Source: an uncultured Gemmatimonadales bacterium (GTDB taxonomy: Bacteria > Gemmatimonadota > Gemmatimonadetes > Longimicrobiales > RSA9). Taken from it: DNA of 64,000 bases. The notes under the pieces are model-generated. The model was not told the origin of the DNA. It saw only the letters and a program-made list of their open reading frames with translations, and did no database searches. The position numbers were made by a program, and so were the translations under genes. The stretch covers positions 4,256,001 to 4,320,000 of the forward strand of contig OY970192.1 in assembly GCA_963708135.1 (NCBI GenBank). The letters run 5' to 3'. Numbering within the stretch: position 1 is the stretch's first letter; each line of letters starts with the position of its first letter. Positions 9,175 through 50,369 of the stretch are shown one piece after another.

Positions 9175-9251
9175 CGGACCGTATCCGAAGTAATCCGAAG
9201 TAGCGATGGGATTCGGTGCTCACGGAACTTCAGATACGGCTCACTGGACTA

Positions 9252-30861: not shown

Positions 30862-30907
30862 TTAACGCGGCCAGCCGGGCCGAGATCCTCCGGACAGGTC
30901 GCCCCCG

Positions 30908-30960
30908 CCGTCGCCTTTTCCACGGCCAGGATCTCCGCCGGGATCTCCTCCAGCGTGCGC
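30908..30960 (-). pseudogene. Remnant of an hsdM 3' end
   Basis: Encodes RTLEEIPAEILAVEKAT versus RTLEEIRADILALEKET in hsdM at ~45050-45105. Confidence 0.7.
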
Positions 30961-31201
30961 GTGTCAGGTGACGGGAAGTTTGCGTATTCCGGCCGAATCC
31001 GTCCAGTGATTCCGGTCGAAGCCGGCCACCGATTCCGGACCATTCCGTCCACCCGTTCCGGAGCAATCCGTCCACCGATTCCGGGGATTCCGTCCTGCCA
31101 TTCCGGCGGAATCCGTCCACCCTTGGGGGAGCGAAGCCGACGCTGGATGACCTGAACCAGACCAGCCGCCACCTTGTGCGGGTCCTGAACCCGGAGGAGA
31201 G

Positions 31202-32773
31202 ATGGCGGCGGAGAGGTTGTCCATGCGGAAGATCAAGGAGGTGCTGCGGCTGAAGGCTGCAGGCCATGGGAACCGGGCGATCGCCCGGAGCCTGCGGATC
31301 GCGCACAGCACGGTCCGCGAGTACCTGAACCGGGCCGAGGCGGCGGAGCTGGGCTGGCCGCTGCCGGAGGGGCTGACGGAGGCGGAGCTCGAGGCCCGGC
31401 TTTTTCCGCCGCCGCAGCCGTCGAACGTGGCGCGTCCGCTGCCGGACTGGGCGGAGGTGCACCGGGAGCTGAAGTCGAAGAAGCGGAGCGGCGTCACGCT
31501 CCAGCTGCTCTGGCTCGAGTACAAGGAGGACCACCCGTACGGGCTCCAGTACAGCCAGTTCTGCGAGCGGTACCGGCGGTGGCGGGGCGGGCTCGACCTG
31601 GTGCTCCGGCAGGAGCACCGCGCCGGGGAGAAGGTCTTCGTGGACTTCGCCGGCCAGACGGTGCCGGTGGTGGACCGGGGCACCGGGGAGATCCGCGAGG
31701 CCGAGATCTTCGTCGGGGTGCTGGGCGCCAGCAACTACACCTACGCCGAAGCGTGCTGGAGCCAGGAGCTGCCCGAGTGGATCGGCGCGCACGTGCGCAT
31801 GTACGAGTACTTCGGCGGGGTGCCGCAGCTCACGGTCCCCGACAACCTGAAGGCAGGGGTCCGCCACGCCTGCTACTACGAGCCGGACCTGAACCCGACG
31901 TATCACGAGTTGGCGGTGCACTACGGCACGGCCGTGCTGCCAGCCCGGGTCCGGAAGCCGAGGGACAAGGCGAAGGCGGAAGCGGGCGTGCTCCTGGTGG
32001 AGCGGTGGATCCTGGCCCGGCTCCGGAAGCTGACCTTCTTCAGCCTGGCCGAGCTGAACCGGGAGATCGCTCGTCTGCTGGAGCTCCTGAACGACCGGCC
32101 CTTCCAGAAGCTGGAGGGCAGCCGCCGCTCGCTCTTCGAGACGCTGGACCGGCCGGCGCTTCTCCCGCTCCCCGAGCAGCGCTACGAGTTTGCCCGCTGG
32201 AAGAAGGCCCGGGTCAACATCGACTACCACATCGATGTCCTCGGCCACTACTACAGCGTGCCCCACACCCTCGTCCGCCAGCAGGTGGACGTGCGCATCA
32301 CCCGCACGAGCGTCGAGATCCTGCACTCCGGCCGCCGGGTGGCGGCGCATCTGCGGAGCCACCGCAAGGGTGGCTTCAGCACGGAGCCCGGACACCGGCC
32401 CAAGGCGCACCAGAAGCATCTCGAGTGGACGCCGTCGCGAATCGTCGCCTGGGCCGAGAAGACCGGGCCCGCCACGGGCGAGCTGGCCCGGCAGATCCTC
32501 GAGAGCAAGCCGCACCCGGAGCAGGGCTATCGCGCCTGCCTCGGTCTCCTGAGGCTCGGCGATCGACACTCTCCTGAAAGGCTCGAGGCCGCCTGCGCCC
32601 GCGCGTTGCGGATCGGCGGCGTCTCGTACCGCTCGGTCAAGTCCATCCTCCAGAGCGGACTCGACCGCCTCCCCCTGGAAGAGCAGGCGAGCCTCACCCT
32701 GCCCCAGAACCATGAACATCTGCGCGGCGGGACCTACTACGCCGCCGCCGCCAACGGAGCCCTCTCATGCTGA
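31202..32773 (+). CDS. istA: IS21 transposase
   Basis: MRKIKEVLRL, YSQFC, FVDFAG, PDNLK, PRDKAKAE, YSVP. Confidence 0.95.
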   Translation: MAAERLSMRKIKEVLRLKAAGHGNRAIARSLRIAHSTVREYLNRAEAAELGWPLPEGLTEAELEARLFPPPQPSNVARPLPDWAEVHRELKSKKRSGVTLQLLWLEYKEDHPYGLQYSQFCERYRRWRGGLDLVLRQEHRAGEKVFVDFAGQTVPVVDRGTGEIREAEIFVGVLGASNYTYAEACWSQELPEWIGAHVRMYEYFGGVPQLTVPDNLKAGVRHACYYEPDLNPTYHELAVHYGTAVLPARVRKPRDKAKAEAGVLLVERWILARLRKLTFFSLAELNREIARLLELLNDRPFQKLEGSRRSLFETLDRPALLPLPEQRYEFARWKKARVNIDYHIDVLGHYYSVPHTLVRQQVDVRITRTSVEILHSGRRVAAHLRSHRKGGFSTEPGHRPKAHQKHLEWTPSRIVAWAEKTGPATGELARQILESKPHPEQGYRACLGLLRLGDRHSPERLEAACARALRIGGVSYRSVKSILQSGLDRLPLEEQASLTLPQNHEHLRGGTYYAAAANGALSC

Positions 32774-33519
32774 CGCACCAGACCCTCGACCAGCTCCACG
32801 AGCTCCGCCTCACCGGCATGGCCCAGGCCCTGGAAGAACAGATGCGCATGCCCGACGTCGAGAGCCTCGCCTTCGACGACCGTCTGGCCCTCCTCCTGGA
32901 ACGGGAGATCACCTTCCGCGACGACCGGCGCCTCACCCGGCTCCTCCAGGTGGCCAAGCTCCATCTTCAAGCCGCCATCGAGGACCTCGACTTCCGAAGC
33001 CCTCGAGGACTGGAGCGATCCCTCATCCTGCGCCTCTCCAGCGGCCAGTGGATCCGCGACCACCAGAGCGTCCTGATCTCCGGCGCCACGGGCACCGGCA
33101 AGAGCTTCCTGGCCTGCGCCCTCGGTCACAGCGCCTGCCGCCAGGGCCTGTCCACCCGCTACTACCGCTTCTCCCGGCTCCTCGGAGAGCTGGCTCTGGC
33201 CCGGGCCGACGGCTCCTACGCCAAGCTCCTCGACCGCCTGGCCAAGACCCAACTCCTCATCCTCGATGACTTCGGCCTCGCTCCACTCACCGACTCCGAG
33301 CGCCGTGATCTCCTCGAGGTCCTCGAAGACCGCTACGGCCGACGCGCCACCCTCGTCACCAGCCAGCTGCCCGTCGAGCACTGGCACGCGGTCATGGGAG
33401 ACGCCACATTCGCCGACGCCATCCTGGATCGGCTCGTCCACAACGCCCACACCATCACCCTGAAAGGAGCATCCATGCGGCGGAAGAAGAATCAGACCCC
33501 CGCCGTCGCCGAGTCCTGA
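32767..33519 (+). CDS. istB: IS21 helper ATPase
   Basis: GATGTGKS, LLILDDFG, TSQLP, ADAILDRLVHNA. Confidence 0.95.
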   Translation: MLTHQTLDQLHELRLTGMAQALEEQMRMPDVESLAFDDRLALLLEREITFRDDRRLTRLLQVAKLHLQAAIEDLDFRSPRGLERSLILRLSSGQWIRDHQSVLISGATGTGKSFLACALGHSACRQGLSTRYYRFSRLLGELALARADGSYAKLLDRLAKTQLLILDDFGLAPLTDSERRDLLEVLEDRYGRRATLVTSQLPVEHWHAVMGDATFADAILDRLVHNAHTITLKGASMRRKKNQTPAVAES

Positions 33520-33699
33520 ACACGCCAGCGTCGCTTCGCTCCGACCGGGTGGACGGCATGGACCGGAACGGGTGGACGGCTTGCGCCGGAACCGCTGGAC
33601 GGCTTCCTCCGGAACTCGTGGACGGAATCACCGGAATAGGCAAAGTTCTCCGAAATCAGGGGACGCGTAGTTTTTCGACCCTCCACCTCTTGGGGGTGT

Positions 33700-33792
33700 C
33701 GGGCCGTAGTGCCGAAGGCGACGACGAGGCCGGCGGGGCTCGCCCGCGTTTCCTCCAGCTCCACGGACCAGGCGGCGGCGTGGTGGGTGAGG
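33700..33792 (-). pseudogene. Fragment of APH(6)-like gene, 5' part
   Basis: HHAAAWSVELEETRASPAGL; homologous to 27790-27870. Confidence 0.7.
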
Positions 33793-33889
33793 TCGGGGGA
33801 TTTAGGTTGGCGTTTCAGGGTGCGATTCGAGGCATGAGGCCGCGGGCGCGCTGTCTGCGCCTGCGCGGCGGCGCAAGCCAAGGAAGGGG

Positions 33890-34131
33890 CGTTACGCCGA
33901 GCGGCGCCTCTGCTTCTCGATGATCTTCGTACTCCTCGCGGAGGTCGTCAGGGCTCGATCGCTTGCTCATAGATCTTTCGCTCGCGGGGGCTCATGAGTC
34001 GCGCGCTGACCAAGCGTACCGCCTCGCCGCGCTCGGTGATTGAGCACAGTTGCCGCCTCCTCGAAGCCCACCGCGTGCTTCCGGAGATTCGATTCCGCCT
34101 TCGCCGGATCCCACTCGACCTCGAGGCTCAC
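33890..34131 (-). pseudogene. brnT: BrnT toxin (internally deleted) and probable BrnA antitoxin start
   Basis: MSLEVEWDPAKAESNLRKHAVGFEEAATVL, then shifted TERGEAVRLVSARLMSPRERKIYE (stop 33948); overlapping MSKRSSPDDLREEY from 33970. Confidence 0.75.
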
Positions 34132-34177
34132 GCCGAAAAGCTAGCAGCCGACGCTCCGCCAGCCAACAGCGGTCCCG

Positions 34178-34290
34178 GCACGCCCTTCGGTCGATGGCCG
34201 TCCAGCCCCGCCGCGCGTCCCACGGCACGTTCGCGTGCTGCAGGTCGCCGTGCAGAAGGCGCACCCGCTCCTGCGAGGCGACGAGACGGC
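34178..34290 (-). pseudogene. Fragment of APH(6)-like gene, catalytic part
   Basis: RLLHGDLQHANVPWDARRGWTAID; homologous to 27325-27435. Confidence 0.72.
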
Positions 34291-34403
34291 CGCGACGTCG
34301 GGATCGAGTCGCACGAGGTTGACCCCCTCGGCGTCGCGAGCGGCGAACGGCGCCGGCGTGGCAGGCCGCGGACGCGCGGACGTGCTCGATCCGAGGTCGA
34401 ACC

Positions 34404-37400
34404 CTACCGCGCCGCCCCTGCCTTCACCTCAGTCCTGTCATAGGTCAGCCCGAACACCGTGTCCGTCAGCCAGCGCCGGAAGCCCTCGTTGTCCATGAAT
34501 TGCTTGAACAGCTCCGTGTCGTCCTTCAGCACGGCCGTCATCACCCGCGCCAGCGCCTTGTCGTGCTCGATACGGGCGTTTTGCTTGTCCGAGTTCTGGC
34601 GCGCGTTCCGGTAGGCCCTGTCGGCCGCGACCCGCTGCGGGATGTCCTCGGTGATGAGCTTGTGCACGCGGTCGCCGTCGGACCACGGGATGTTGCCGAA
34701 CTGGTCGTTGAACGCCTTGAGGATGTTCGAGAGCCGGTCGATCTCGGGCTCGGGCTTGGGGCCGCCGCCGGTGGTCGGCACCGGCTCGATCTCCGCGTCC
34801 GCGTCGGGGAGCTGGATCCTGGCCACCGCCTGCTTCTCCACCCGGTAGCTGTCCATGTCGATTGCCTCGAGGATGCCCTTGGCGAGGTCCTCCTCGACGG
34901 GCGCCGGCAGCTTGGGCACGAGGAAGGTGAGGAAGATCGAGAGCTTCTCCCAGTCGGCGTTGGTGTAGGGCAGGACCTGTGAGAGGAACCCGTAGGCCCG
35001 CAGGAAGGCCTTGGCCTTGCCCTTGAAGTCCACCTGAGCGTCCTCGTCGAGCCGCTCGCGGTAGTCGGCGACGCAGGCGTCGAGGATGGGATCGAGCCGG
35101 TCGCGGTCCGCCCCGCCCAGGTAGAGCGCCACGAGCTCGTCCACCTGTGCCGGGGCATGGACCTGGTAGCCGTCGAGCGCGGCCTTGAGGTCGTGCAGCT
35201 TGTTCGGGTCGGTCTCCTCGGCCAGGATAGTCGTGCGGTAGTAGTCGGCGAACGCCTCCTGGATGGTGTCCGCGTCGTTCATGAAGTCGAGCACGAACAC
35301 GTCGTGCTTCTTCGGATGCGCGCGGTTGAGCCGGGACAGCGTCTGCACGGCCTTGATGCCGGAGAGCACCTTGTCCACGTACATCGAGTGCAGCAGCGGC
35401 TCGTCGTAGCCGGTCTGGAACTTGTCGGCGCAGATCAGGAACCGGTACGGGTCCTCCCGGATCCTGTCGGCGATCTGGCGCGACGGGAACCCGTTGAGCG
35501 ACGCCTCCGTGACCTTGCTCCCGCCGTAGTCGTGCTCGCCCGAGAACGCCACAATCGCTTGGTAGCGGCTCTTGCGCTCGGCCAGGTAGTCGCGGATCGC
35601 GTGGTAGTACTGGATCGCACGCTCGATGCCGCTGGTCACCACCATCGCGCGCGCCTCGCCGCCGATCTTGTTCAGCGCCAGCACCTGCTCGTGGAAGTGG
35701 TCCACCATGATCTCGGCCTTGAGCCGGATCGCGTGGTCGTGGCTCTCCACGTAGCGGCGCAGCTTCTTCTTCGCCCGCCTGGTGTCGAACTCGGGGTCGC
35801 CCTCCACCTTCTTGACGAGCTTGTAGTAGCTCTCGACCGGCGTGTAGTACTCGAGCACGTCCAGGATGAAGCCCTCCTGGATCGCCTGCTTCATCGTGTA
35901 GCTGTGGAACGGCCGGTGCTTCACCGTGCCGTCGGCCTGCGGCTCGGGGAGCCCAAAGATCTCGAGCGTCTTGTTCTTGGGCGTCGCGGTGAACGCGAAG
36001 TAGCTGGCGTTGGGCAGCAGCTTCTTCGCCTCCATGAGCCGGTTGATCGTGTCCTCCAGCGTCTCGTCGTCCTCCTCGGCTCCGGCCGTGGAGAGCGCAA
36101 TCGACAGCGCGGCCGACGTCCGCCCGCCCTGGCTCGAGTGCGCCTCGTCGATCACGATGGCGAAGCGCCGCCCGCGGTGCTCGCTCCCGATCTCGTCGAG
36201 GATGAACGGGAACTTCTGCACCGTGGAGATGATGATCTTCTTCCCTTCGGCGATGAACTTGCCCAGGTCGCCCGAGTGCTGGGCGTGGCCGACCGTGGCG
36301 CCCACCTGGGCGAACTGCTTGATGGTGTCCTTGATCTGCTGGTCGAGGATCCTGCGGTCCGTGACGACGATGATCGAGTCGAAGACCGTCGCCTCGTCCT
36401 TCTCGAGCCCGATGAGCTGGTGCGCGAGCCAGGCGATCGAGTTCGACTTGCCGCTCCCCGCCGAGTGCTGGATCAGGTAGCGCCTGCCCGCGCCGCTCGC
36501 CCGCGCGTCGGCGAGCAGCCGGCGCACCACGTCGAGCTGGTGGAACCGCGGCCAGATCTGCATCGCCTTCTTCCTGCCAGTCTTGTCGTCCTTCGTCTCG
36601 ACGACCTGCGCGTAGTTCTCGAGGATGTCGGTCAGGCCGCCCTTGGTGAGCACGCGCTTCCACAGGTAGTCGGTCTTGAGGCCGTTCGGGTTGGGCGGGT
36701 TGCCCGCGCCGTCGTTCCAGCCCTGGTTGAAGGGCAGGAACCACGAGACCTTGCCCTTGAGGTGCGTGCAGAAGCGAACCTCGTGATCGTCCACGGCGAA
36801 GTGCACCACGCAGCGGCCGAACTCGAAGAGCTTCTCGCGCAGGTCGCGGTCGCGCTGGTACTGCTCGACGGCGTCGGCGACCGTCTGCTTGGTCAGGCTG
36901 TTCTTCAGCTCGAAGGTGGCGACGGGCAGGCCGTTGATGAACAGGCCCAGGTCGAGCGCGCGCTGCGTCTCGTCGCGGCTGTAGCGGAGCTGGCGCATGA
37001 CGCTGAAGCGGTTCTGGGCGTAGCGCTCGGCGGCCCTGGCGTTGCCCGGCGAGGGCGTGCCGTAGAAGAGGTCGAGTTGGTGCGGCCCGTGCTTGAGCCC
37101 GTGGCGCAGCACGTCGATAGTGCCGCGCTTCGTGATCTCGCCCTGGAGCCGCGCCAGGAACTTGCGCCGCGTGGGCCCGTCCTGGCCCAGGTCGAGCGCG
37201 TCGGCCACCTCGCCTTGAGTCTCGCGCAGGAAGGTCGAGAGCTGGGCGAGGTCCACGCAGTACTCGCGGTCGTAGTCCTCGGCCGCGCCGCAGATCCAGC
37301 CCGCGCCGTAGGCGGCCGGGCGCTCGTGCACGGAGTCGGCCTGGACCGTCCCCGGATCGCAGGCCGCGCCGGTCAGCGCCGTGCAGATCAGCCGTTCGAG

Positions 37401-37427
37401 GCCGCGCTCGGAGGTGTCGGTGGTCAT
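34404..37427 (-). CDS. hsdR: Type I restriction endonuclease subunit R
   Basis: LFINGLPVATFELKN, HSAGSGKS, IDEAHSSQ, FTATP, KFQTGYDEP, QTLSRLNR. Confidence 0.95.
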   Translation of the reverse strand: MTTDTSERGLERLICTALTGAACDPGTVQADSVHERPAAYGAGWICGAAEDYDREYCVDLAQLSTFLRETQGEVADALDLGQDGPTRRKFLARLQGEITKRGTIDVLRHGLKHGPHQLDLFYGTPSPGNARAAERYAQNRFSVMRQLRYSRDETQRALDLGLFINGLPVATFELKNSLTKQTVADAVEQYQRDRDLREKLFEFGRCVVHFAVDDHEVRFCTHLKGKVSWFLPFNQGWNDGAGNPPNPNGLKTDYLWKRVLTKGGLTDILENYAQVVETKDDKTGRKKAMQIWPRFHQLDVVRRLLADARASGAGRRYLIQHSAGSGKSNSIAWLAHQLIGLEKDEATVFDSIIVVTDRRILDQQIKDTIKQFAQVGATVGHAQHSGDLGKFIAEGKKIIISTVQKFPFILDEIGSEHRGRRFAIVIDEAHSSQGGRTSAALSIALSTAGAEEDDETLEDTINRLMEAKKLLPNASYFAFTATPKNKTLEIFGLPEPQADGTVKHRPFHSYTMKQAIQEGFILDVLEYYTPVESYYKLVKKVEGDPEFDTRRAKKKLRRYVESHDHAIRLKAEIMVDHFHEQVLALNKIGGEARAMVVTSGIERAIQYYHAIRDYLAERKSRYQAIVAFSGEHDYGGSKVTEASLNGFPSRQIADRIREDPYRFLICADKFQTGYDEPLLHSMYVDKVLSGIKAVQTLSRLNRAHPKKHDVFVLDFMNDADTIQEAFADYYRTTILAEETDPNKLHDLKAALDGYQVHAPAQVDELVALYLGGADRDRLDPILDACVADYRERLDEDAQVDFKGKAKAFLRAYGFLSQVLPYTNADWEKLSIFLTFLVPKLPAPVEEDLAKGILEAIDMDSYRVEKQAVARIQLPDADAEIEPVPTTGGGPKPEPEIDRLSNILKAFNDQFGNIPWSDGDRVHKLITEDIPQRVAADRAYRNARQNSDKQNARIEHDKALARVMTAVLKDDTELFKQFMDNEGFRRWLTDTVFGLTYDRTEVKAGAAR

Positions 37428-38893
37428 GCCTCGGCCTCCTCCGGCACCTCGTCGGTGACATCGGCGCCCGCTTCGTCGGTTTCGGCTTCGGCCTCGATCT
37501 CGTCGAGCGGCTCGGGCTCCTCGGCCTCGTCCGGCAGCCGGGCCGCCGCCTCGCGCACGTCGAGTTTGCCGGTTACGACGTCGGCGATCAGGCGGGCGCG
37601 GTATTCGCCAAGGAGGTCCACTTCGCGGCGTGCTCGGTCCGACGCGGCCACAACGTCCTTGGTGGCACCTTCTAGGTAGTCAATTATTTGAACCTGCTCC
37701 TCCGCCGGCGGAACCACGAGCTCGATTCGCTTGAGATCGCGAATGTTGATTCCGCGTACCGTCGCACCCACCACTTGAGATTTCACATGCTCGCGGAAGA
37801 TCGGGGCTCGAACAGCATGCAGAAGCCAGCGTGGGTCTATGCCGCTGTCCGCAGCGATACGAGCGGCGTCCTGAGTCACGTTTGCTCCCGCGAGCTCTGG
37901 TGGGACTAGCTCGGCGGCCCCTACTCCACCTCGAATAGCGAACACAATGTCCCGCGCCGCGAGGCGCGAGCGGGCATATCGCGACTCGATCTCGAACGTG
38001 GTGCGCGATAGCAGTTCGGGGCGCAGGCGACCGGGCTCGCAGTTGCCACCCTTAACTATGTAGATACCGTCATCGACGTTGGGCCCGGGCAGAACGATGC
38101 CGTACATGATGGCCCGGCTTGGGTCCGTAACTTGGTGAAGTCTCTTCACCTCCCAATGCTCCGGCACATCCCCCAGCCACTCCACGCCGGAGGGCTTGAG
38201 GCGGACGTTGGGGTCGAGGCCGCGGGTGACGGCGCGGTGGATGATGGCCTGCTTCTGCTCCTCCAGCAGCTTGATCAGCTTCTGCTTGGCGCGGATGTAC
38301 CGCCGAATCCGCCGGTCCGCGTGGTCGAGGAAGCGGACGATGGCGGCTTGTTCGGGGAGGGGTGGGGCAGAGAGCCAGACGGACTTGATCGCTGCATGCG
38401 AGAGCCCATATCGCGTGACACCATTTGCCTCGACGTGAAACTGGTACTGCGCAGCCTTGCTCTGCAGCGCGCGAAGAAGATACTCTCCCCATAAGCGCTT
38501 CTCGAACGGGCGAAGAAGTGCCAAGTGGTATCCGCTAACGAGGTCAGCCGCGGTTTCGCGCACAAGCGCAGGGACACCAATGTCATTCCAGGCTTCCGAG
38601 TCTTTCGTGATGAGCACGTCGCCAACGGCCAGGCGGAAACGCTCGACTTGATCCCTCGTCGCCGTTGCCCGCATGAGGCCCATACTCGGGCGGAGGTAGT
38701 CGTTCTTGTAGACGTCAACATAGTTGCAGAGGCGAACAGGCTCCTCGTCATCTTTGGTGTGCTTGTCGACGTTGCTGACGCGCATGTCGGCCAGGTTGCG
38801 GAGCCGCTGTACCTCCCAATGCTCCGGCACCTCCCCCAGCCACGGCACGCCGGAGTCCTTCATCGCGGGATAGGGCCTCAGGTCAGCGATCAT
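37424..38893 (-). CDS. hsdS: Type I R-M specificity subunit
   Basis: Repeated KDSGVPWLGEVPEHWEV / KPSGVEWLGDVPEHWEV, PPLPEQ / PPAEEQ; two lower-GC TRDs; VVTGKLDVR. Confidence 0.95.
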   Translation of the reverse strand: MIADLRPYPAMKDSGVPWLGEVPEHWEVQRLRNLADMRVSNVDKHTKDDEEPVRLCNYVDVYKNDYLRPSMGLMRATATRDQVERFRLAVGDVLITKDSEAWNDIGVPALVRETAADLVSGYHLALLRPFEKRLWGEYLLRALQSKAAQYQFHVEANGVTRYGLSHAAIKSVWLSAPPLPEQAAIVRFLDHADRRIRRYIRAKQKLIKLLEEQKQAIIHRAVTRGLDPNVRLKPSGVEWLGDVPEHWEVKRLHQVTDPSRAIMYGIVLPGPNVDDGIYIVKGGNCEPGRLRPELLSRTTFEIESRYARSRLAARDIVFAIRGGVGAAELVPPELAGANVTQDAARIAADSGIDPRWLLHAVRAPIFREHVKSQVVGATVRGINIRDLKRIELVVPPAEEQVQIIDYLEGATKDVVAASDRARREVDLLGEYRARLIADVVTGKLDVREAAARLPDEAEEPEPLDEIEAEAETDEAGADVTDEVPEEAEA

Positions 38894-41481
38894 GCCTTGT
38901 ATCCCTTGACGCGCTTGAACCAGCTGTCCACCAGGCGAAGCTCTTCCTCGATCTTGTCGATGTCGGGGGCGACGTAGTTGACGGCGGCGCTCTTGTCGTG
39001 CCGCCTCGCCCACTGCGACGCCCGGCCGTAGCTGCCCTCGAACTCATGGTGATCGTCGTCGGAGAAGCGAGCCAGGACCTTCACCATCATCGGGCGCACC
39101 TCGAGGCCGCCTTCCGCGAGGACGGGCCCGACGATCTCCTGGCTGAAGATGCGCTCCCAGGTCTCCGACAGATTGCCGGCCCAGACTGCCACGGCATCCT
39201 CGTACTGCTCTTCTTCCCAGGCACTGCTCTCCTTCTTGATTCGGCTGAGCTCCTGCCGGAGTTCGTCGAGGCGGGCCGGTACATCCTTGGCCTTCCAGGG
39301 GTGCTTTGTTGTGCAGGCACCCGGCTTGCGCTCGTCCGCCCGGCTCCTCATGACCGACCGCTCCGCAATCTGAACGCCCTTGGCACCGGCCTCGCGCTTG
39401 AGGTCTGCCACGAACGCGACGTCGTGGGTGAACAGGATCACCTGTCGAGTCTCGGCGAGGGCCGCAATCCGCGTCGCGACTAGACCGCGGCGGATGTGAT
39501 CGAGCGACGTCACAGGATCATCGAGGATGAGAGCCGACTTCGAGCCGTCGAGGTGTGCCTCGGTGAAGAATGCTGCCAGTCCCAGCGCAGTCCGCTCGCC
39601 CTCGCTGAACACTTTGGGCAGCGTAACCTGCTGGCGCGCCCCGACGAGTTTTGGTTGGTGAAGCAGGGCTCCCTTATCCGCACGGGTACGGGCGATCGTC
39701 ACCCGTTCGAGCCGGAGCCTTTCCGACTCTCTCGTGAAGGTGTCGCGGACTACCTCAGTGATGCTCTCCTCGGAGAGCTCCAGAATCTTCTTCGTGATAC
39801 CCGTCGTCGCGGCAGCGCTCTTGGCCGCTTCCAGCGCCTCACGCTCCTTTAAGCGCTGGACCTCCTTGGCGATCGCTGACCGCGACTTCTTGACCTGCTC
39901 CAGCAGCTCGAGCTCCGTCCGTCTCGCGGTGAGAGCCTCGAGGTGCTTCTGAACCCCTTCTGGGTTCGCGAGCTCCTCAGCAGCTGCCCTTGCTGCGTCA
40001 TTGGCTCCATTGAGGCGGTCGATGGTTGTTGCCTGCTCGATTGCGATCGAAGGAACCTCCCGCTGATTGGCCAGCGCCTCGCGCACATGTGCGTTTGCCG
40101 ACTCGTAGTTCGTGAGGAGCGCGCGCACCTCAGCGACGACGTCGCCATTCGGCTCGTCCAGATCCTCGAGGTGGTTTGCGACGGTCTCCGGCGAGACCTG
40201 AAGCTCTCGCAAGACCTTGGCCTTCTGGTCGTAGGCGCCCTTCGCATCCTGTAGGCGGACTTGGGTGTCGTTGCGGACGAACTCGTCGAAGCGGACCAAG
40301 CGATCTCGGCCCCCCGCCTCCAGGGGTTGCTGGCACAGGACGCACCGGCACTCACTCCCCAGGAACGGGAAATCGTGGTCCGGGTAGGCGTGCTCCCTTG
40401 AGAAGCGCTGGGCCGCTTCCCACAACGCCTTCCAGGGAGAGCTCCCCACGCCCGGCAGGGGCTCCGATTCGAAGGAGCGCGCAAGCAGGGCCGCCGCCTC
40501 TTCGAGCACTTTGATCTCGGCCTGGTGCCTTTGAATCTCGGCGAGAGCCACGCTGCCCAGCGCCGCATCCAGACTTTCAATGTGGCTGCGCAGCGCCACG
40601 AGCTTCTCGCTCTGCCGCGCGAGCTGCTGGCGCGCCTTGGTCGTGTCAGCGCTCCGCAGGCCAGCTTCCTGCTCCTTGAGGTTCTCGATCGTCTCCTCGG
40701 TCGCGTCGAACCTCGCGATCAGCGCGTCGAGCGTCTCGATCGAAGAGCTAGACGAGAGGGACAGGAGGAATTGGCCGGCATCGCTCTCTCGCACTTGCTC
40801 GGGGACGGTCGGCAACTGGTTCGCTGAGGCGCCGTTCTCCGCAAGCTTGGTGTCGATACGCGCGCGGACCGCCACGCAGGCCTCGATGAGGCCGTCCATG
40901 ACGAAGAGGGCCGAGGGTCGGTACGGGAAGTCCGACTCGCTGGCGATGTAGGCGCTGCCGCAGGCTGCATCATAGAAGCGCATGCGCTGCAGCTCGGGAC
41001 GGGAGGACTCCGGCCAGGCAAGAGGCTCGTCGGCGCCGCCGATCCGCACGGAGAGCCTCGCGGTCGGCTGCGCCAGGGAGGTGTCGCGGAAGACGTCCGT
41101 CAGTACATCCTCCCGGTGACGAGCTCGGGTAATGCGCTTCAGCAACCTCGCGTAGCCAGACTTGCCGCTCCCGTTGTCGCCGTACACGATCGTCAAGCCC
41201 TGCGGCTCGAAGGTCAGAGGCTCCTTCGATTCCAGCGCGTTCACATGCTCAGGCTTCTCGATCGCCAAGAGGCAGACCGGGAGGTCTTCCGATGCAGCCT
41301 GTGGCAGCTGCTCGAGGCCGAACTGGCCCACCGGGAGCTCTTGCGCTCCCACGATTGCTTCGACCAGGCGGTCGTGGTCTTCGTCGGAGAGTACCTCGCC
41401 GACTGCTACGCGACGCATGACTTCTCTTTGCCATGCGGGGCGTTCCTGGCTCCAGGCGACGATGAGCTTTTCTAGTGCCAC
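38890..41481 (-). CDS. Rad50/RloC-like ABC ATPase with coiled coil and zinc hook
   Basis: GDNGSGKS, central CVLC, signature SEGE, LILDDPVTSLD, FTHD; helical C-terminus ending WARRHD. Confidence 0.8.
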   Translation of the reverse strand: MALEKLIVAWSQERPAWQREVMRRVAVGEVLSDEDHDRLVEAIVGAQELPVGQFGLEQLPQAASEDLPVCLLAIEKPEHVNALESKEPLTFEPQGLTIVYGDNGSGKSGYARLLKRITRARHREDVLTDVFRDTSLAQPTARLSVRIGGADEPLAWPESSRPELQRMRFYDAACGSAYIASESDFPYRPSALFVMDGLIEACVAVRARIDTKLAENGASANQLPTVPEQVRESDAGQFLLSLSSSSSIETLDALIARFDATEETIENLKEQEAGLRSADTTKARQQLARQSEKLVALRSHIESLDAALGSVALAEIQRHQAEIKVLEEAAALLARSFESEPLPGVGSSPWKALWEAAQRFSREHAYPDHDFPFLGSECRCVLCQQPLEAGGRDRLVRFDEFVRNDTQVRLQDAKGAYDQKAKVLRELQVSPETVANHLEDLDEPNGDVVAEVRALLTNYESANAHVREALANQREVPSIAIEQATTIDRLNGANDAARAAAEELANPEGVQKHLEALTARRTELELLEQVKKSRSAIAKEVQRLKEREALEAAKSAAATTGITKKILELSEESITEVVRDTFTRESERLRLERVTIARTRADKGALLHQPKLVGARQQVTLPKVFSEGERTALGLAAFFTEAHLDGSKSALILDDPVTSLDHIRRGLVATRIAALAETRQVILFTHDVAFVADLKREAGAKGVQIAERSVMRSRADERKPGACTTKHPWKAKDVPARLDELRQELSRIKKESSAWEEEQYEDAVAVWAGNLSETWERIFSQEIVGPVLAEGGLEVRPMMVKVLARFSDDDHHEFEGSYGRASQWARRHDKSAAVNYVAPDIDKIEEELRLVDSWFKRVKGYKA

Positions 41482-41582
41482 GCGGCTTGCCCCCCTGGTA
41501 TCTCAACGTCCTCAGGCATCTCCCTCACCGGCGGTCCGCTGGAGTCCTTCATCGCGGGATAGGGCTGGAGGCCGTCGATCAT
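41472..41582 (-). pseudogene. Duplicated, degenerate hsdS 5' end (36-aa ORF)
   Basis: [28 protein letters not shown] versus hsdS [28 protein letters not shown]; 25 bp identical (41541-41565 = 38852-38876). Confidence 0.85.
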
Positions 41583-44500
41583 CGCCCGTTCACCTGCTCG
41601 AACCAGAGGATGGCCGCCTCTCCCTCCTTTCGCGTGATCTCGTCCACGCTGCGGCTGTGGCGGATGCCGTTGCGCAGGTCGGCGAGCTGACCGAAGCGCT
41701 TGACCAGCGTCTCCTTGTTGGCGAAGCGGCCCTCGAAGAGCGTCCAGAGCGCCTTGCTCGTGACGGTTCCCTCCAGCTCCCGCAGGTCAGCGTACTCGAG
41801 CTTGCCGGCGAGCGTCGTGTAGCGCTCGCTATCCAGCGCGGCGCTCTTCTTCGCCGCCGCCTGCAATCGCTCCTCGACCTTCTGCAGTACATGCGGAGGG
41901 AGCCGGCCGGGATCCCCGTCCAAGGCCTCGTCGATGCCTCGTCGGATGGCCAGTTCGACCGCTTCGATCCGCGCGTCTAGCTCCCGTAGCTGAGGCGGGA
42001 GGTCCAACCGTTCCTTCACCAGGAGGTCCTCGATCGCGTCCTGAAGCGTGCGCTGGCGCTCGGCGAGGAAGGCGTCGAAATCGTCCGTCGTGAAGGGGTC
42101 GCGCAGCAGGATCGCGAGGGCCGCCGGGGAGATGAAGTGCGACTCCAGCGTGGCGCGAACGCTCGCTTCACCGCTCGCTGCGATCAGCTCGGGCAGATAC
42201 TCGTTCGGCAGGCGGTCGCTGATGACCTTGCGGTTGGTGTCGGCGGTAAGCGGAGTGCGATTCAGGATCGTGTCGATGGCACCGCCGAGACGCTGCTGCT
42301 TGCCCCAGCTCTTGGGGACGATGTGGTGGTCGTCGAGATCCCCGTACTGGGGCACGTTGCCGGTCATCCAGTCGCGGGCGCCGCGCAGCACCAGCAGGTT
42401 GAAGATGCCGTTGTAGACCGAGGTGCCGCGCTTGGTCTCCCGCCGCAGATCCAGCGTCCTGAAGCGCGCCCGGAACTCGGCGATCAGGCCCGGTTCCGCG
42501 ACGTCGTTCTCGAACCACGCTTTCACGTCGAGGTAGTCGCGGGCGCTGGTGGACTCCACCGATCCCGAGTAGCGATTGGTGAAGACGCTGGCCCAGTACC
42601 AGTGACGGAGCTTGCGCTGCGCATCGAGCTGGCGTGTGGCAGGGAGCGCGCGCAGGGCGGCCTGGAGCGCCGCGAACGCCGGGAGGATCGACACATAGGG
42701 CAGGTACTGCGACGAGATGGCGCCGAACTCCTGGGGGTGGCGCAGCAGCGCGATCGCTCGCTCGACCGCTTCTACGGATTCCCTCCAGCGTCGCTCGAAG
42801 TCGGCTACGTCGGGGACCAGAACCTCCTTACGCAGCGATCCGTCCGGCTCGCGTACCTTCTTCTCCTGGCCGGGCAGCAGGTAGTAGAGGTACTTCGGCG
42901 AACAGTAGGCCTGGCGCAGGATGGACATCACCTGCAGCAGGTAGACGTTCATCCGCTCGGTCTCGACGAACTCGAGCCGTTGCGCGGCTTCGCGCCAAAG
43001 GTGCTTGAGCTGGAGGCCCTTGGGCTTGAGCAGCGCGTTCACCAGGTCGAAGACGTCAAGGCGGATCCCGCGGCTGTTGATCTGCGTGAAGATGTCGCAG
43101 ACCTTGTCGATCTCGAGGTCGCGGTCGAGCTCGATGTAGGCGACCTGGTACTGTTCGGTGATGGCCTTCAGGTGCTCGCCGAACGAGCGGGCATCGCGCG
43201 CGCGCAGTCCCGCCTCGCGGGCTGCCGCCTCATCACCGGCACTGCTCGCGGCCTGCTCCTTGTCGCGCCAGTGTTTCTCGTAGCCCTGCACCCAGTTCGG
43301 CAGCTCCCATCCGCCCTGGCCCACCACCGAAACCGGAAACATGTGGTTCTCGTACTGCGCGCTCTGATCGGCGAGCAGATTCAGCCCCCTGCGCGTCCAG
43401 TCGTACTCGAACGCCTCGTCGTACGCTTCCTCCATGAACCGATCGACCCGGATGAAATAGAGGAAGCGATTCGACCGGTTCGGGAGCGGCTCGTCTGGCG
43501 CGAGGAAGACGTAGTACCGCGCCACAGTGGTCATGATGCGTAAAGGCGGTGGAGCTTGGATCGCGCATTGGAGACAGTGAAACGCCAGGTGGTGGGAGCT
43601 CGGACGGCGTTGCGGGGGGTCTCCCAGGCGAGGGTCTCGGCCCGCAGCCGGTTGACGTTGTCAAGGCGGCGGTGCAGGCACTGGCGACCGAGGATCGAGA
43701 TCTCGATTTCGGCCATGTTGAGCCAGCTCCCGTGCTTGGGCGTGTAATGGAACTCGAGCTTGCGCAGGATACGGCGCGCTTCGGCGGCCTCGAAGGTCTC
43801 GTACAGGGCTGCGCCCGTGTGGCTGCTCAGGTTGTCGAGCACGACGCGGATCTTGTCGGCGTCCGCGCAATGCACGTCGACCAGTGCGCGCATCTGCTGG
43901 GCGAAGTCCGCATTCGTGCGACGGGCGGTGACGTCCACATGCCGCCAGCCTCGCAGCGGCTCCACGAGCAGGAAGAGGTTGGCGGTCCCGCGGCGCACGT
44001 ACTCGTAGTCGACGCGTTGGCGCCGACCCGGAGCGGCCGGCACCGGCAGGCGGGTTTCCCCGATGAGCTGGTAGGGCACTTCATCGAAGCACACCACCGG
44101 GCGCCGGGGGTCGTAGGGCTCCTGGTAGAGGTCGAGCACGTCCTCCATGCGGCAGACGAAGTCCCAACTCACCGTCGGGATGCACCACGCTTCCTTCTGC
44201 CAGGGCTTCAGGTCGTTTTTTTTAGAAGCCGTCGGACCGTCTCGTCCGTGATCGCGTCCACCACACGCAACTCGATCAGCTTGTCGGCCAGGAGCTGCAT
44301 GGTCCAGCGCACGCGCCCCTCCGGAGGCGCGCTGCACGCCAGCGCGACCAGGAAGGCTTCCTGCTTGCCGTCCAGCAGCCGGGCTTTGCCCGGCCGAGGC
44401 CGATCGTTGAGCGCCCGCTCCAAACCGCCCTCGACGAAGCGCAGCCGCGTGCGCTCCACCGTGCACTTCCCCAGGTGCAGCGCGGCCGCAATCGCCTTGT

Positions 44501-45015
44501 CGGTCACGCCCTCGTCGGCCAGCAACAGGATGCGCGCGCGGTTCACCCGGCGCACCCGCGCCTTGCCGCCCTGGAGCAGGCGCTTGAGTTCGGCCCGCTC
44601 GTCGTCCGTGAGGTCCACGATATACTTCTTGGCCATCTGCCCTCCTCGCTGGGGGTCCGACAGATGGGCCAACAATATAGCACGGAACTTTAGTCCTCAC
44701 AATCATGATGGCTGAGTAGTAGTACATCGCCGTCAGGCGCTGTTGCCCATCGAGGACGATGTGCACCGGGTCGCCGTCGCCGTGGTAGCCGTAGATCGCC
44801 TCGCAGGCGAGCGCGGCAAAGTTCTCGGGCTTCCCCTTCCAGAGCAGGAGGCTGCCGATGTAGTAGTCGAGGAAGATCGAGCGCAGCAGTTCCCGGATGT
44901 CCCACGGCTTCCACTCGAATTCGCGCTGGAAGTCGGGGATGACAAAACGCCCCTCGCGGAGCCGCCCGACCAGCGTGGTCAGGCTGACATGGTCGGGCTT
45001 CTGAGCATCCTTCAT
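41579..45015 (-). pseudogene. GmrSD-like DUF262/DUF1524 gene with C-terminal HEPN-like domain, interrupted by IS630
   Basis: IPDFQREFEW, LDGQQRLT, IFTQINSRG, DDHHIVPKS..LN..N, RNGIRH. Removing the IS and one TA restores a 742-aa frame (..AMYYVFLAPD..). Confidence 0.88.
43514..44719 (-). mobile_element. IS630-family insertion sequence, copy 2 (1206 bp); transposase 44636-43531
   Basis: Near-identical to 9252-10458 in inverted orientation; TA at 43512-13 and 44720-21. Confidence 0.93.
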
Positions 45016-46994
45016 CCCCGCGCCCCCCCGATGATCTCGCCGAGCAGCCCCTCGGTCTCCTTCTCCAGCGCCAGGATGTCCGCCCGGATCTCCTCCAGCG
45101 TGCGCAGCGGCTGCGGCTTGTAGAAGTAGCGGGTGAAGCTGATCTCGTAGCCGGTCTTGACGCTGCCCTCCACGTACCAGGCGTCGGCGGCGTGGGGCAG
45201 GACCTCGCGGCGCAGGAAGGCCTCGATGCCGCCCTCTTCGAGCAGCGGCACCTGCTCGGTTTCGCGCAGATCGGAGTCGGACTCGTATTCGATCACGGCG
45301 GGCTTGCCGCCGATGGTGGCTTCGAACAGGCCGCGCAGCGGATCGGCCGCGGTGCCCCTCTTGTGGATCTTCTTGATGACCGGCGGCGCGTCGTCGGCGC
45401 GCTCGGCCGTCTCCTTGAGCGCCTTGATCTCCTTGGCCGTGTACGCGCGCTCGGGGTCGGCGCCCACGAGCCGCAGCGGGCGCTCGACGGTGACCTTCCA
45501 GTAGCCGAAGGCGGCGTTCGGGAAGATCTTCGACTGCTCGGTCTCCTCGAAGGCGAGGAACGTGTCGCAGATGCGCGCGATGTCCTCGCCGGAGAGCTCG
45601 CAGTTCTTCTTGCCGAGGTTCTTGCGCAGCGGCTTGAACCACTTCGTGGCGTCGATGAGCTGCACCTTGCCCTTGCGGGGCGCCGGCTTGCGGTTCGACA
45701 GCACCCAGATGTAGGTGGCGATGCCGGTGTTGTAGAACATGTTGAGCGGCAGGGCGACGATGGCCTCGAGCCAGTCGTTCTCGATGATCCAGCGACGGAT
45801 GTTGCTCTCGCCCTGGCCGGCGTCGCCGGTGAAGAGCGAGCTGCCGTTGTGCACCTCGGCGATGCGGCTGCCGAGGGCGGTGGCGTGCTTCATCTTGGAG
45901 AGCATGTTGGCCAGGAAGAGCATCTGGCCGTCGCTCGAGCGGGTGACGAGGGAGTACTCCGGGTCGCCCGCGTGCTCGATCAGGAAGCGCGGGTCCTTGA
46001 GGCCGCCCTTGCCGCCCATGCGCTCGAGGTCGGTCTTCCAGCTCTTGCCGTAGGGCGGGTTCGAGAGCATGAAGTCGAACTCGCGCGAGGAAAACGCGTC
46101 GTTCGCGAGCGTCGAGTGCTCCGGGCCGCCGACGATGTTGTCCGCCGCGTCACCTTCGCCCTTGAGCAGGAGGTCGGCCTTGCAGATCGCGTAGGTCTCG
46201 GCGTTGATCTCCTGGCCGTAGAGGTGGGTCGCGACCTCCTTGCCGTGCTCCCGGGCGAGCTCCTGGAGCGTCTCCTCCGCGACCGTGAGCATGCCGCCTG
46301 TCCCGCAAGCGCCGTCGTAGAGCAGGTAGGTACCCGACTCGATCTGGTCGGCGATGGGCAGGAAGATCAGCTTCGCCATGAGCCGCACCGCGTCGCGCGG
46401 CGTCCAGTGCTCGCCGGCCTCCTCGTTGTTCTCCTCGTTGAAGCGCCGGACCAGCTCCTCGAACACCGTGCCCATGCCGTGGTTGTCGAGGCCGGGGTGC
46501 TTCACCGAGCCGTCGCCGTGCCGCACCGGGTTCGGGCTCAGGTTGATGTCGGCCGAGAGGAGCTTCTCGATCAGCGTGCCGAGCGCGTCAGCCTTGGACA
46601 GGCGCGGGATCTGGTTGCGGAACTCGAAATTCTCGAGGATGTCCTCGACATTGGGTGAGAAGCCGTCGAGGTACGCCTCGAAGTCGGCCTTGAGCTGCTG
46701 CTGGCTTGCGCGGGCCCGGAGGTCGCGCAGCGTGAACTTCGAGGTGTTGTAGAACGCCTGGCCGGCGGCCTGACGCAGGGCCTGGTCCTGGTTGGTGATC
46801 CTGGCCTGGTCGAGCGAGGCCTTCATGTCGAGGACGGCCTGCTTCGTCGGCTCGAGCACGGCGTCGAGACGGCGCAGGACGGTCATGGGGAGGATCACGT
46901 CGCGGTACTTGCCCCGGACGTAGAGGTCGCGGAGCACGTCGTCGGCGATGCCCCAGATGAAGTTGGCGATCCAATTGAGGTCGGATGAGTTCAT
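45012..46994 (-). CDS. hsdM: Type I R-M methyltransferase subunit
   Basis: FIWGIADD.LR, AGEHWTPR, YDGACGTGG, NPPY, MFYNTGIATY. Confidence 0.95.
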   Translation of the reverse strand: MNSSDLNWIANFIWGIADDVLRDLYVRGKYRDVILPMTVLRRLDAVLEPTKQAVLDMKASLDQARITNQDQALRQAAGQAFYNTSKFTLRDLRARASQQQLKADFEAYLDGFSPNVEDILENFEFRNQIPRLSKADALGTLIEKLLSADINLSPNPVRHGDGSVKHPGLDNHGMGTVFEELVRRFNEENNEEAGEHWTPRDAVRLMAKLIFLPIADQIESGTYLLYDGACGTGGMLTVAEETLQELAREHGKEVATHLYGQEINAETYAICKADLLLKGEGDAADNIVGGPEHSTLANDAFSSREFDFMLSNPPYGKSWKTDLERMGGKGGLKDPRFLIEHAGDPEYSLVTRSSDGQMLFLANMLSKMKHATALGSRIAEVHNGSSLFTGDAGQGESNIRRWIIENDWLEAIVALPLNMFYNTGIATYIWVLSNRKPAPRKGKVQLIDATKWFKPLRKNLGKKNCELSGEDIARICDTFLAFEETEQSKIFPNAAFGYWKVTVERPLRLVGADPERAYTAKEIKALKETAERADDAPPVIKKIHKRGTAADPLRGLFEATIGGKPAVIEYESDSDLRETEQVPLLEEGGIEAFLRREVLPHAADAWYVEGSVKTGYEISFTRYFYKPQPLRTLEEIRADILALEKETEGLLGEIIGGARG

Positions 46995-47324: not shown

Positions 47325-48404
47325 CTACCCCCCAGGGACGGCACTGCCGGCAAGGGCGCCCCACGGGCTGGAGCGTCGTGCACCGGAGTGCGCCACCAAG
47401 CGGTCGAGCGTATGCGTTAAGAGCTTGCCCAGGTCCCCGTCGAGCATAGACGCGACGCGAGTCTCGCCCGGCTGATCCGGCTCGAACGCAGGATCGTGTT
47501 CGACCGCCTGCACCAGGCCGTTATAGGCTTCCCAAGCGGTGTAGGCACCGGCGTGGCCCTCGCCTTCGGTCCATAGCCGCCGGACCTCCGTCCGCCGTCG
47601 CAAGGCGCGCTCGACCGCCGTCGCACCCAACGACCGATCTGGCTCGGGCGCTGTTGGATCAAGAACGAGCCTATCGAACTCCGTCTCCGTGAGACGGCAG
47701 CTTCTGAGCAACTCGAAGTCTGCCGCCAGCCGCCCGTACCGCTGCACGATAGCGGCGAACAAGGTCCGGGCCGCTTCCACGATCCGCAGCTCTGCGCCGC
47801 GGCTATGCGAGACTGAGAAGCGGCGGCCTCGGTGTGCGTCGATCAAGTGCTCAGCGAGGGTGAGGGTATTTCCGCACACGACGCGAATCGGGGTCTCTGC
47901 GATGATCGCATCGCGGCGTCCGGAGTGGTTGTTCGCGAAGAGAACGTAGGGGAGAATTTCGTCCCGGAACGCGTCCTGGACTGGCTGCGTCATCTGGCTC
48001 GCGGTGACCCGAGCGAGGAGCCATGCGTCCGCGCCGCCCCGCAGTGCGCCGCCCGTTTCCAATGCCAGGATGTCGGCGTCGAGCAATGGCTGGAGGACTG
48101 CGAACGCATCGAGATTCTGAAGCGGGTGGTAGCTCTCCCCGACAACGCCTAGCACGGTCTGTCGATCGCTGCGAATCGTGACGAAGCTCCCTGCGGTGTC
48201 ATGGCGGAGCACCGGCCCTGGGCCGACGGCACGTGTCGGCGCTACGGCGCGCTTCTCGACGGTGTAAGCGAGGCCACCCCGGGCGAGCGCCATTTCAAGC
48301 GATGGCGGTTCATCCAATGTGACTCCTTCACGGTGCCAAGCCGGTTTCCGCACCGTGAATACGGAAGCCCTTCCATCTCTGTTCCGGTCGAGTTCAGCAG
48401 GCAT
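47325..48404 (-). CDS. DUF932 phage/plasmid-like protein
   Basis: PAWH..G, LGVVG..Y..LQN.DAF, ETGGAL.GG, PIRVVCGNT, TAWEAYNG. Confidence 0.8.
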   Translation of the reverse strand: MPAELDRNRDGRASVFTVRKPAWHREGVTLDEPPSLEMALARGGLAYTVEKRAVAPTRAVGPGPVLRHDTAGSFVTIRSDRQTVLGVVGESYHPLQNLDAFAVLQPLLDADILALETGGALRGGADAWLLARVTASQMTQPVQDAFRDEILPYVLFANNHSGRRDAIIAETPIRVVCGNTLTLAEHLIDAHRGRRFSVSHSRGAELRIVEAARTLFAAIVQRYGRLAADFELLRSCRLTETEFDRLVLDPTAPEPDRSLGATAVERALRRRTEVRRLWTEGEGHAGAYTAWEAYNGLVQAVEHDPAFEPDQPGETRVASMLDGDLGKLLTHTLDRLVAHSGARRSSPWGALAGSAVPGG

Positions 48405-49686: not shown

Positions 49687-49953
49687 ATGCAGGAGATGTC
49701 CCGTATGGCCAAGCGGAGCAAGAACCTGTCGCTGGACCCCGAGGCGGTTCGCCGGGGGGAGCGCTACGCTCAGGAGCACGACACCAACGTGTCGCAGCTC
49801 GTGAACAACTTTCTCGCGTCGCTGCCGATGGATGAGGAGCTGGCGAACGCGGCGCTGACGCCGACGGTGCGCCGGATGCTGGGTGTGGCGGAGGGCGGGA
49901 GAGGTGTCGAGGAATACCACGAACACCTCGTCGAGAAGTACGGCCGCGGATGA
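49687..49953 (+). CDS. Antitoxin (DUF6364-like ribbon-helix-helix)
   Basis: NLSLD..YA..TNVSQLVNNFL..EYHEHLVEKY; ATGA overlap with the PIN gene. Confidence 0.8.
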   Translation: MQEMSRMAKRSKNLSLDPEAVRRGERYAQEHDTNVSQLVNNFLASLPMDEELANAALTPTVRRMLGVAEGGRGVEEYHEHLVEKYGRG

Positions 49954-50369
49954 AGCTGCTTCTGGACATCAACGTCGTCCTCGACGTGCCGCTGGGGCGC
50001 GCGCCGTGGGTCGCCGAAGCCGCCGAACTGCTCTCTGCCATCGAGCGGGGGCAGGCGGTCGGATTCGTGGCCGCGCACACGGTGACGACGTACCACTACA
50101 TCGTCGCAAGGGCCGCCGGCCGCGAAGTGGCGGTGGCCGCGACGGGAGATCTTCTGCGCCTGGTGCAGGTGGTGCCGATCGGGGCGGGCGAGTTCCGGGA
50201 GGCACTGGCGCTCGGGCTCGACGACTTCGAGGATGCTGTGCAGGCGGTGGCCGCGCTCAGGGCGGGAGCCGATTACCTGGTCACGCGCAACGCCCGTGAC
50301 TTCCGGGGAACGGCAACACCCCTGCGTAGCGCCGGAGAGGTCCTCGCGCTTCTCCAGTCCCATCCGTAG
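49950..50369 (+). CDS. PIN domain toxin (VapC-like)
   Basis: LLDINVVLD, DFEDAVQ, LVTRNARDF. Confidence 0.88.
   Translation: MKLLLDINVVLDVPLGRAPWVAEAAELLSAIERGQAVGFVAAHTVTTYHYIVARAAGREVAVAATGDLLRLVQVVPIGAGEFREALALGLDDFEDAVQAVAALRAGADYLVTRNARDFRGTATPLRSAGEVLALLQSHP

Follow-up and report, generated by a model that had tools for sequence, protein, structure and literature searches.

Positions 34404 to 46994 of a 64,000-nucleotide stretch of the genome of an uncultured Gemmatimonadales bacterium (contig OY970192.1, positions 4,256,001 to 4,320,000; hereafter, the window) hold a type I restriction-modification (R-M) operon in which two further genes are lodged between hsdM and hsdS (Table 1). All genes lie on the minus strand, in the order hsdM, a gene for a GmrSD-type DUF262 protein (45015-41579), a gene for an RloC-like ABC ATPase, hsdS and hsdR. 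The five genes of the initial annotation are real, and profile matches confirm the identities of the three hsd genes, all of which have open frames, so that the type I gene set is complete. The sequences GACGTGG and NPPY are present in HsdM, and HsdR contains what we take to be its Walker A and DEAH motifs; the sequences are observed and the motif labels, for both proteins, are our assumption. The GC content of the operon region is 62-69%, compared with 72% genome-wide. Promoter and terminator scans yielded hits at chance level (1 vs 1.0 expected and 9 vs 7.6 expected, respectively). Sequencing runs labelled as RNA contained 5-7% of the sequence words. The same genome encodes a second, distant type I R-M locus (24-31% identity; G000:C1:3361432-3366500).

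Table 1. Features of the type I R-M operon and an adjacent mobile element, with coordinates in the window.
Feature	Position	Strand	Basis
hsdM, type I methyltransferase, 660 aa	45012..46994	-	Pfam N6_Mtase + HsdM_N; PADLOC PDLC03029 (MTase_I), E 9.6e-243
5' part of GmrSD-type DUF262-HNH-HEPN gene, about 98 codons, with QR and DGQQR motifs	44719..45015	-	Pfam GmrSD_N, E 1.3e-20
IS630-family element, 1208 bp, helix-turn-helix orfA + DDE orfB	about 43511-44718	-	NF033545, E 4.5e-44; copies, flanks
3' part of DUF262-HNH-HEPN gene, 651-aa open reading frame, ATG within the IS630 end; FxxxN, D-H..N..N HNH motif, C-terminal RNxxxH	41579..43534	-	Motifs; fold of intact relative
Relic of hsdS 5' end, 36-codon open mini-ORF	41472..41582	-	79% identity over 72 nt to the live hsdS start; nhmmer 55 bits
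RloC-like Rad50/SbcC ABC ATPase, CxxC hook, C-terminal helical, probably HEPN, domain; 863 aa, GTG start	38890..41481	-	PADLOC PDC-S06; Pfam AAA_13; model
hsdS, two target-recognition domains, 489 aa	37424..38893	-	Specificity_I, E 1.7e-108
hsdR, 1007 aa	34404..37427	-	TIGR00348, E 3.4e-59, under the curated cut-off of that model
IS21-family element, istA 31202-32773, istB 32767-33519, long repeated ends	about 30975-33648	+	Two more genome copies, >99% identity

The genes were originally described as a chain of five start/stop overlaps. Three of these are direct junctions, i.e., the hsdM stop overlaps the DUF262 start (45012/15), the ATPase stop overlaps the hsdS start (38890/93), and the hsdS stop overlaps the hsdR start (37424/27). 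The other two, however, do not join the DUF262 and ATPase genes to each other: the DUF262 stop (41579/82) and the ATPase start (41472/81) both overlap a short open reading frame (ORF) that is a relic of the 5' end of an hsdS gene. Where a locus has a single cargo gene, the hsdS start is in the position that the relic has in the window, the DUF262 stop overlapping that start or lying directly against it. An hsdS-like start follows the DUF262 stop in all five loci in which a DUF262 gene and the ATPase gene are stacked (the window and the collected loci L002, L004, L005 and L023); the profile search recovered it in two of them, the window and L002, and gave a weak signal in L023, and the short traces in L004 and L005 were recognized by eye. 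In four of the five stacks, the trace is an open mini-ORF whose end lies across the start of the ATPase gene; the trace in L004 is an in-frame fusion.

Relics of hsd gene ends are also found in front of cargo genes elsewhere. Hybrids of an hsdS 5' end and an hsdM 3' end are present in L021, L130 and L159, and L017 contains an hsdM 3' relic with a different kind of left end. Where compared (window, L002, L017, L130, L159), the relics are 79-92% identical to the resident genes, a divergence that fits either donor loci or age. As judged from the sequences, the relics fit recombination between two related hsd loci through one homologous and one illegitimate joint. The joint of the hybrid in L159 (oriented 12860-13040) apparently lies at a short Tyr-Lys stretch common to both gene ends, a possible microhomology. 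In L026 (988-1089) and L027 (9888-9989), a DUF262 gene is directly preceded by a lone hsdM 3' tail and no complete hsdM lies in the vicinity, which looks as though the cargo had moved together with its junction. An assignment of the 3' half of the window relic to an hsdM tail was not supported. Literature searches on hsd-end relics found no paper.

The synteny search proposed along with the initial annotation shows that the DUF262 and ATPase genes do not form a fixed unit. Three sets of loci were collected: 19 picked by the ATPase, 79 picked by the DUF262 protein (from the best 80 of 194 matches; 63 of the 79 have at least 500 nt downstream) and, from about 1100 genomes in three phylum-level samples, 64 loci picked by HsdR, of which 48 have a scorable hsdM-hsdS slot. 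Close relatives of both cargo genes occur together in a single DUF262 locus (L023), and in none of the 19 ATPase loci and none of the 48 slots; three ATPase loci have a distant DUF262 relative (22-23% identity). A few more joint loci may exist, to judge by the equal sizes of the longest contigs (32237, 6280, 20291) of some DUF262 and ATPase matches. On synteny, a fixed five-gene system is rejected.

The type I context is shared by many of these loci and is itself variable. Among the 19 ATPase loci, 12 contain type I genes, with the ATPase nested between hsd genes in 11, and 7 have no hsd match (one of these is only 3 kb long). The 79 DUF262 loci comprise 32 that match the present hsd subfamily, 18 with other type I genes, 9 with none over 3 kb or more on both flanks, and 20 that are too short. 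Of the hsdM-hsdS slots picked by HsdR, 15 are empty and 33 filled, three with a DUF262 gene, one with the ATPase and none with both. Furthermore, six HsdR relatives at 89-91% identity are accompanied by varied cargo and by HsdS proteins that are only 40-62% identical, and in a tree of 77 HsdR rows the cargo labels are no more clustered than in shuffles (7 changes for 7 ATPase rows, 12 for 14 DUF262 rows); this test is approximate, given that L048 and L096 carry a DUF262 gene but were grouped with 'neither' and that several rows are slotless at a contig end. Other occupants of these slots include DarTG, Kiwa, SIR2-HerA, Schlafen, PRTase-CE, PDC-M32A and another GmrSD, as seen among the 69 cargo clusters of the first locus set, from which 45 representatives were scanned with Pfam and 37 with PADLOC. 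Solo copies of both cargo genes, with no hsd gene nearby, are found amid housekeeping or integrase genes (39 of 106 neighbors scanned). The slot is thus a hot spot, and each nested gene is cargo with a mobility of its own.

The second of these cargo genes encodes a protein that matches the PADLOC family PDC-S06 over its full length (E 9.3e-166; residues 6-859 on profile positions 6-854 of 858) and Pfam AAA_13 only in part (residues 379-701, E 4.4e-19). Its structural model (mean pLDDT 90.7) has matches to the Rad50/SMC head and five helices at the C-terminal end. For comparison, an alignment of 120 sequences was assembled from the query, 6 matches of a first search and 113 of the 150 best matches of a second, most shorter or partial matches being left out. 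The ATPase motifs are intact, and the zinc hook of the initial annotation holds in every sequence, with the CxxC cysteines (C380/C383) invariant in 120/120. RloC has been defined by ABC motifs, a CX2C hook, a length of 658-897 aa and an Arg-X3-Glu-X36-52-His triad (PMC2610378), and the present protein resembles it in that a coiled coil bearing a CX2C hook divides its ATPase, and also in its length, its Glu776-X51-His828 spacing and its GUG start. It differs in having Ser in place of the Arg of Arg-X3-Glu, in an Arg placed directly before the His, and in about 70 extra N-terminal residues before the core. Because the Arg is absent from its canonical position, the name RloC denotes a resemblance rather than membership, so far as the sequence can tell.

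The candidate catalytic residues are accordingly S772-x3-E776 ... R827-H828. In the alignment, His828 is invariant (120/120) and Glu776 nearly so (118/120); the register was chosen by this conservation of Glu776, compared with 63-64/120 for positions 780-781. Position 772 is Ser in 54 sequences, all of which have Arg directly before the His, Arg in 65, none of which do, and Gln in one. All four residues, S772, E776, R827 and H828, are 100% kept in the 54 Ser-type relatives, down to about 30% identity. Mapped onto the tree, the Ser/Arg form calls for two changes: it arises once, and in a single nested row (P0302) the two positions have reverted. The simplest reading is that the Arg, presumed to bind phosphate, moved from the Arg-X3-Glu helix to a position beside the His; in Cas13, the Arg of the HEPN site is described as holding the scissile phosphate (bioRxiv 10.64898/2025.12.03.690598). 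In the literature searched on RloC, HEPN and the catalytic arginine, a scope outside which most subscription papers and bioRxiv supplements fall, the complementary Ser/Arg pair is unreported.

In a profile alignment to 16 AAA_13 proteins, homology was confirmed (probability 99%) but the triad came out displaced by one helical turn, and the register is therefore not settled by it; the C-terminal domains of the ATPase and of the DUF262 protein failed to align with each other (probability 10%). Fold searches with the whole ATPase were taken up by the SMC/ABC head and thus did not probe its C-terminal domain, and a homodimer prediction for residues 725-863 scored 0.15, which gives no answer and was not used. 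A sequence search of the PDB returned only Rad50 and BrxU, and a search of plasmids only relatives below 60% identity, mostly named AAA family ATPase.

The first cargo gene had been described as a DUF262-HNH-HEPN gene. This architecture is probable, but the gene is not intact, being split by an IS630-family insertion sequence directly after the DGQQR motif (after codon 98). With the element removed, a stop-free frame of 742 codons remains, whose product agrees with an intact relative at 712 of 742 positions, and the gene is intact in relatives. The protein has at least 2756 relatives among 7999 candidates scored, the top 120 being 77-96% identical. The QR, DGQQR and FxxxN motifs lie at positions 30, 89 and 240, and Pfam GmrSD_N was called in 45/45 relatives; these GmrS motifs and the (E/D)-H-N-N HNH motif follow the definitions in PMC4619093. 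The HNH and HEPN labels are drawn from motifs, a fold match and a sub-threshold atlas lead, and Pfam called neither domain. The D-H..N..N motif is present and conserved among the relatives, with GmrSD_C called in 0/45; the RNxxxH motif at 712, within the last 145 residues, is kept in 14/14 relatives, and Pfam detected no HEPN domain in 45/45 family members. For this C-terminus, the atlas gave HEPN_Swt1 at 0.88-0.89, below the threshold of 0.9, i.e., as a lead only. The model of the intact relative (mean pLDDT 77.8) has BrxU (7P9K) as its best Foldseek match (E 3.9e-11), followed by SspE and a chain of the DndI system. The protein is of the GmrSD-type DUF262-HNH kind, with a probable Swt1-like HEPN tail. 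A fusion of this architecture, VNG7073, was tabulated as active in 2013 (Table 1 of PMC3710099); the likeness was drawn by architecture only. Literature searches found no experimental test of the HEPN-fused form.

The genome contains nine near-full copies of this IS630 element (99.3-100% identity) and one partial copy; besides the operon copy, a second one lies within the window at 9245-10460, at a CTAG site. The operon copy occupies a CTAC target, whereas the other eight near-full copies occupy CTAG, a target that places stops at both ends of the element. Here, the 5' DUF262 frame stays open for 395 codons into IS630, up to the transposase stop at 43531, giving a read-through frame of 494 codons from the DUF262 start, and this stop overlaps the ATG at 43534, which is in frame with the remaining 651 residues of the DUF262 protein. 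On paper, the coupling chain therefore continues across the element, with its actual translation surmised from the frames. Chance suffices to explain the open frame, because at the left end it is open in 7 of 9 copies; 2 of the 9 copies have one extra nucleotide close to that end. Given the in-frame read-through at both ends, the insertion is probably not polar, and the downstream genes are probably still translated. The DUF262 layer, in turn, is probably inactive in the present genome because the element cuts the NTP-binding domain in two.

The empty site is represented as well, in contigs from three other sequencing runs that join 43510 to 44719. An assembly artefact is unlikely: the nine near-full copies have distinct flanks, depth in run X1 is 53 on IS630 vs 5-8 on its flanks (about 9-fold), although no X1 contig bridges the junction. 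Run X1 is possibly the source sample and hence not independent.

Taking these observations together, we consider it quite probable that this is a type I R-M operon whose hsdM-hsdS junction holds two likely exchangeable anti-phage genes, likely stacked by recombination between related hsd loci, and that it did not evolve as one five-gene system. The inferred history is that recombination took place between an hsdM-DUF262-hsdS locus and an hsdM-ATPase-hsdS locus, and that the old hsdS start was left behind as a mini-ORF that would preserve translational coupling. Going by what is known of the families, unmethylated DNA would be the substrate of HsdMSR. If intact, the DUF262 protein would act as an HNH nuclease that depends on DNA modification and is gated by NTP, backed up by a HEPN RNase. 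The ATPase would use its Rad50-like head to detect breaks or ends in DNA and would set free a HEPN domain that cuts tRNA, in which R827 may take the place of the missing RloC Arg. The layered defense suggested at the outset fits this evidence and its precedents, except that the GmrSD-type layer is split in the present genome; the locus resembles a layered R-M-plus-cargo defense but is one draw from a pool of cassettes, with one layer probably broken.

Several observations weigh against this interpretation. The relics are rare, with one among the 48 scored slots picked by HsdR plus L130, which was dropped by a filter, and are absent from most multi-gene slots. The linkage of both cargo genes to type I loci is strong (hsd matches in 12 of 19 ATPase and 50 of 79 DUF262 loci), and some DUF262 gene precedes the ATPase in four other loci (L002, L004, L005, L023), so some functional pairing is possible. 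With regard to the ATPase, the Ser/Arg pattern counts as only some two events in evolution rather than 119 separate ones, and P0302, the row that reverts, may be degenerate, since the Glu is missing from it too. Finally, the HEPN assignment of either C-terminal domain remains putative after the fold searches.

A PrrC-style integrated system, in which the ATPase, the GmrSD-HEPN protein or both would be bound and silenced by HsdMSR and fired when a phage anti-restriction protein disables the complex, appears unlikely. PrrC acts in such a way, and the same has been proposed for HEPN genes in R-M operons (PMC3710099, section 10); the nesting of the ATPase between hsd genes in 11 of 19 loci and the coupling of all junctions in the window would suit this mechanism, as would the 10- to 100-fold greater protection reported for a full type I cluster compared to TgvAB alone (PMC11411939). 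Nevertheless, no hsd match is present in 7 of the 19 ATPase loci (including the one of only 3 kb) or in 9 DUF262 loci that extend for 3 kb or more in both directions; hsd loci that are only 38% identical to the present one (L007, L011) likewise have the ATPase nested in them; the cargo is scattered on the HsdR tree; and RloC is described as being under the control of its own ATPase and hook (PMC3710099). Even less probable is that the nested genes add little or nothing, the DUF262 gene being a pseudogene and the ATPase's C-terminal domain an RNase-dead binder or sensor at most after the Arg-to-Ser change: the DUF262 domain is indeed split, the Arg that is Ser here is essential in RloC of G. 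kaustophilus (PMC2610378), and some motif-less HEPN domains are thought to be non-catalytic (PMC3710099), yet the ATPase motifs and hook are intact and the full conservation of S772, E776, R827 and H828 in the Ser-type relatives speaks in favor of a retained active site.

Embedding in type I operons is by itself well established, for PrrC, for RloC and RloF as R-linked ORFs, for TgvAB and for DarTG2. RloC has been named as an insert in type I loci (PMC2610378), type I R-M is given as the commonest neighbor of GmrSD (PMC4619093), and thousands of gene families are reported to be embedded in BREX, DISARM and type I R-M loci ('guilt-by-embedding'; Payne et al., bioRxiv 10.1101/2024.01.29.577857). 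The closest precedent for the first cargo gene is TgvAB of the Vibrio cholerae island VPI-2, a GmrSD-family DUF262/HNH modification-dependent restriction system inside an active type I operon, with complementary cover of modified and unmodified DNA; TgvAB consists of two proteins, for which the account in PMC11411939 describes no HEPN domain, whereas here a single 742-aa protein with a probable HEPN tail occupies the hsdM-hsdS slot and is split by an insertion sequence. Its motifs (QR, DGQQR, FxxxN, HNH D-H-N-N) and best fold match place it next to BrxU/GmrSD. The ATPase is comparable to PrrC in EcoprrI, an ABC-ATPase-HEPN back-up gene nested in a type I operon (PMC3710099, PMC12707154); unlike the 863-aa, hook-bearing ATPase, which also occurs solo, PrrC is described as a protein of 341-416 aa with no hook insert that is almost always R-M-linked. 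In the type I R-M island of enteropathogenic Escherichia coli, abortive cargo (DarTG2) likewise lies between hsd genes, at a site called a potential recombination hotspot, although there the cargo is another one and the slot that between hsdS and hsdR (PMC12255303); DarTG is also present in relatives of the window operon. The PADLOC family matched by the ATPase over its full length, PDC-S06, belongs to a set of 145 untested candidates (bioRxiv 10.1101/2024.01.29.577857), and a 2026 preprint reports an overlap between calls of PDC-S04 and PDC-S06 and those of RloC and SoFic.

The novelty of the combination that the initial annotation implied is not upheld, given the independent mobility of the nested genes and the published cases of embedded GmrSD-type (TgvAB) and ABC-ATPase-HEPN (PrrC, some RloC) genes. 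With regard to a match to an already described system, the cargo genes are of described kinds and their nesting is published, but the exact pair was not found in print; that literature searches found no paper on the DUF262 and ATPase pair is unsurprising for a shuffled slot.

Further features lie around the operon. Just beyond the IS21 element, a 58-bp relic of an hsdM 3' end (30903-30960, minus strand) is 86% identical to 45048-45105 and lies upstream of an AAA_14-DUF4143 gene (PADLOC PDC-S01, E 3.7e-92); this is possibly a second, decayed cargo junction. Downstream of hsdR, the region 33640-34400 includes two pieces (113 and 92 bp; 88-89% identical) that are repeated at 27324-27436 and 27788-27875, and decayed frames in the same region may represent a BrnT/BrnA-like toxin-antitoxin pair. 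Upstream of hsdM, a phage- or plasmid-like DUF932 gene (47325-48170, minus strand) and a DUF6364-PIN pair (49687-50369, plus strand) suggest a decayed mobile island.

As an operon, the locus is one more example of a published pattern and matters little in that capacity; the residual novelty lies in the Ser/Arg RloC-like subfamily and in the stacking scar. We tentatively propose, as a possibility that goes well beyond the preceding interpretation, that the ATPase stands for a subfamily of RloC-like tRNases that is widespread and undescribed and whose active site has been rewired, in that the Arg has moved beside the His and the tRNA target or the chemistry of the cut is possibly altered; that it travels as a cassette which is stacked in type I operons through recombination at the ends of hsd genes, the leftover hsdS start being kept as a coupling peptide; and that, owing to where IS630 landed, translation continues both along the chain and into a truncated HNH-HEPN product. 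With the relics, there is a concrete way for embedded defense genes to accumulate without an integrase. The Ser/Arg pair, for its part, is a clean natural experiment on the RloC/PrrC-type HEPN site, and motif-based screens would wrongly call the Ser-type ATPases dead.

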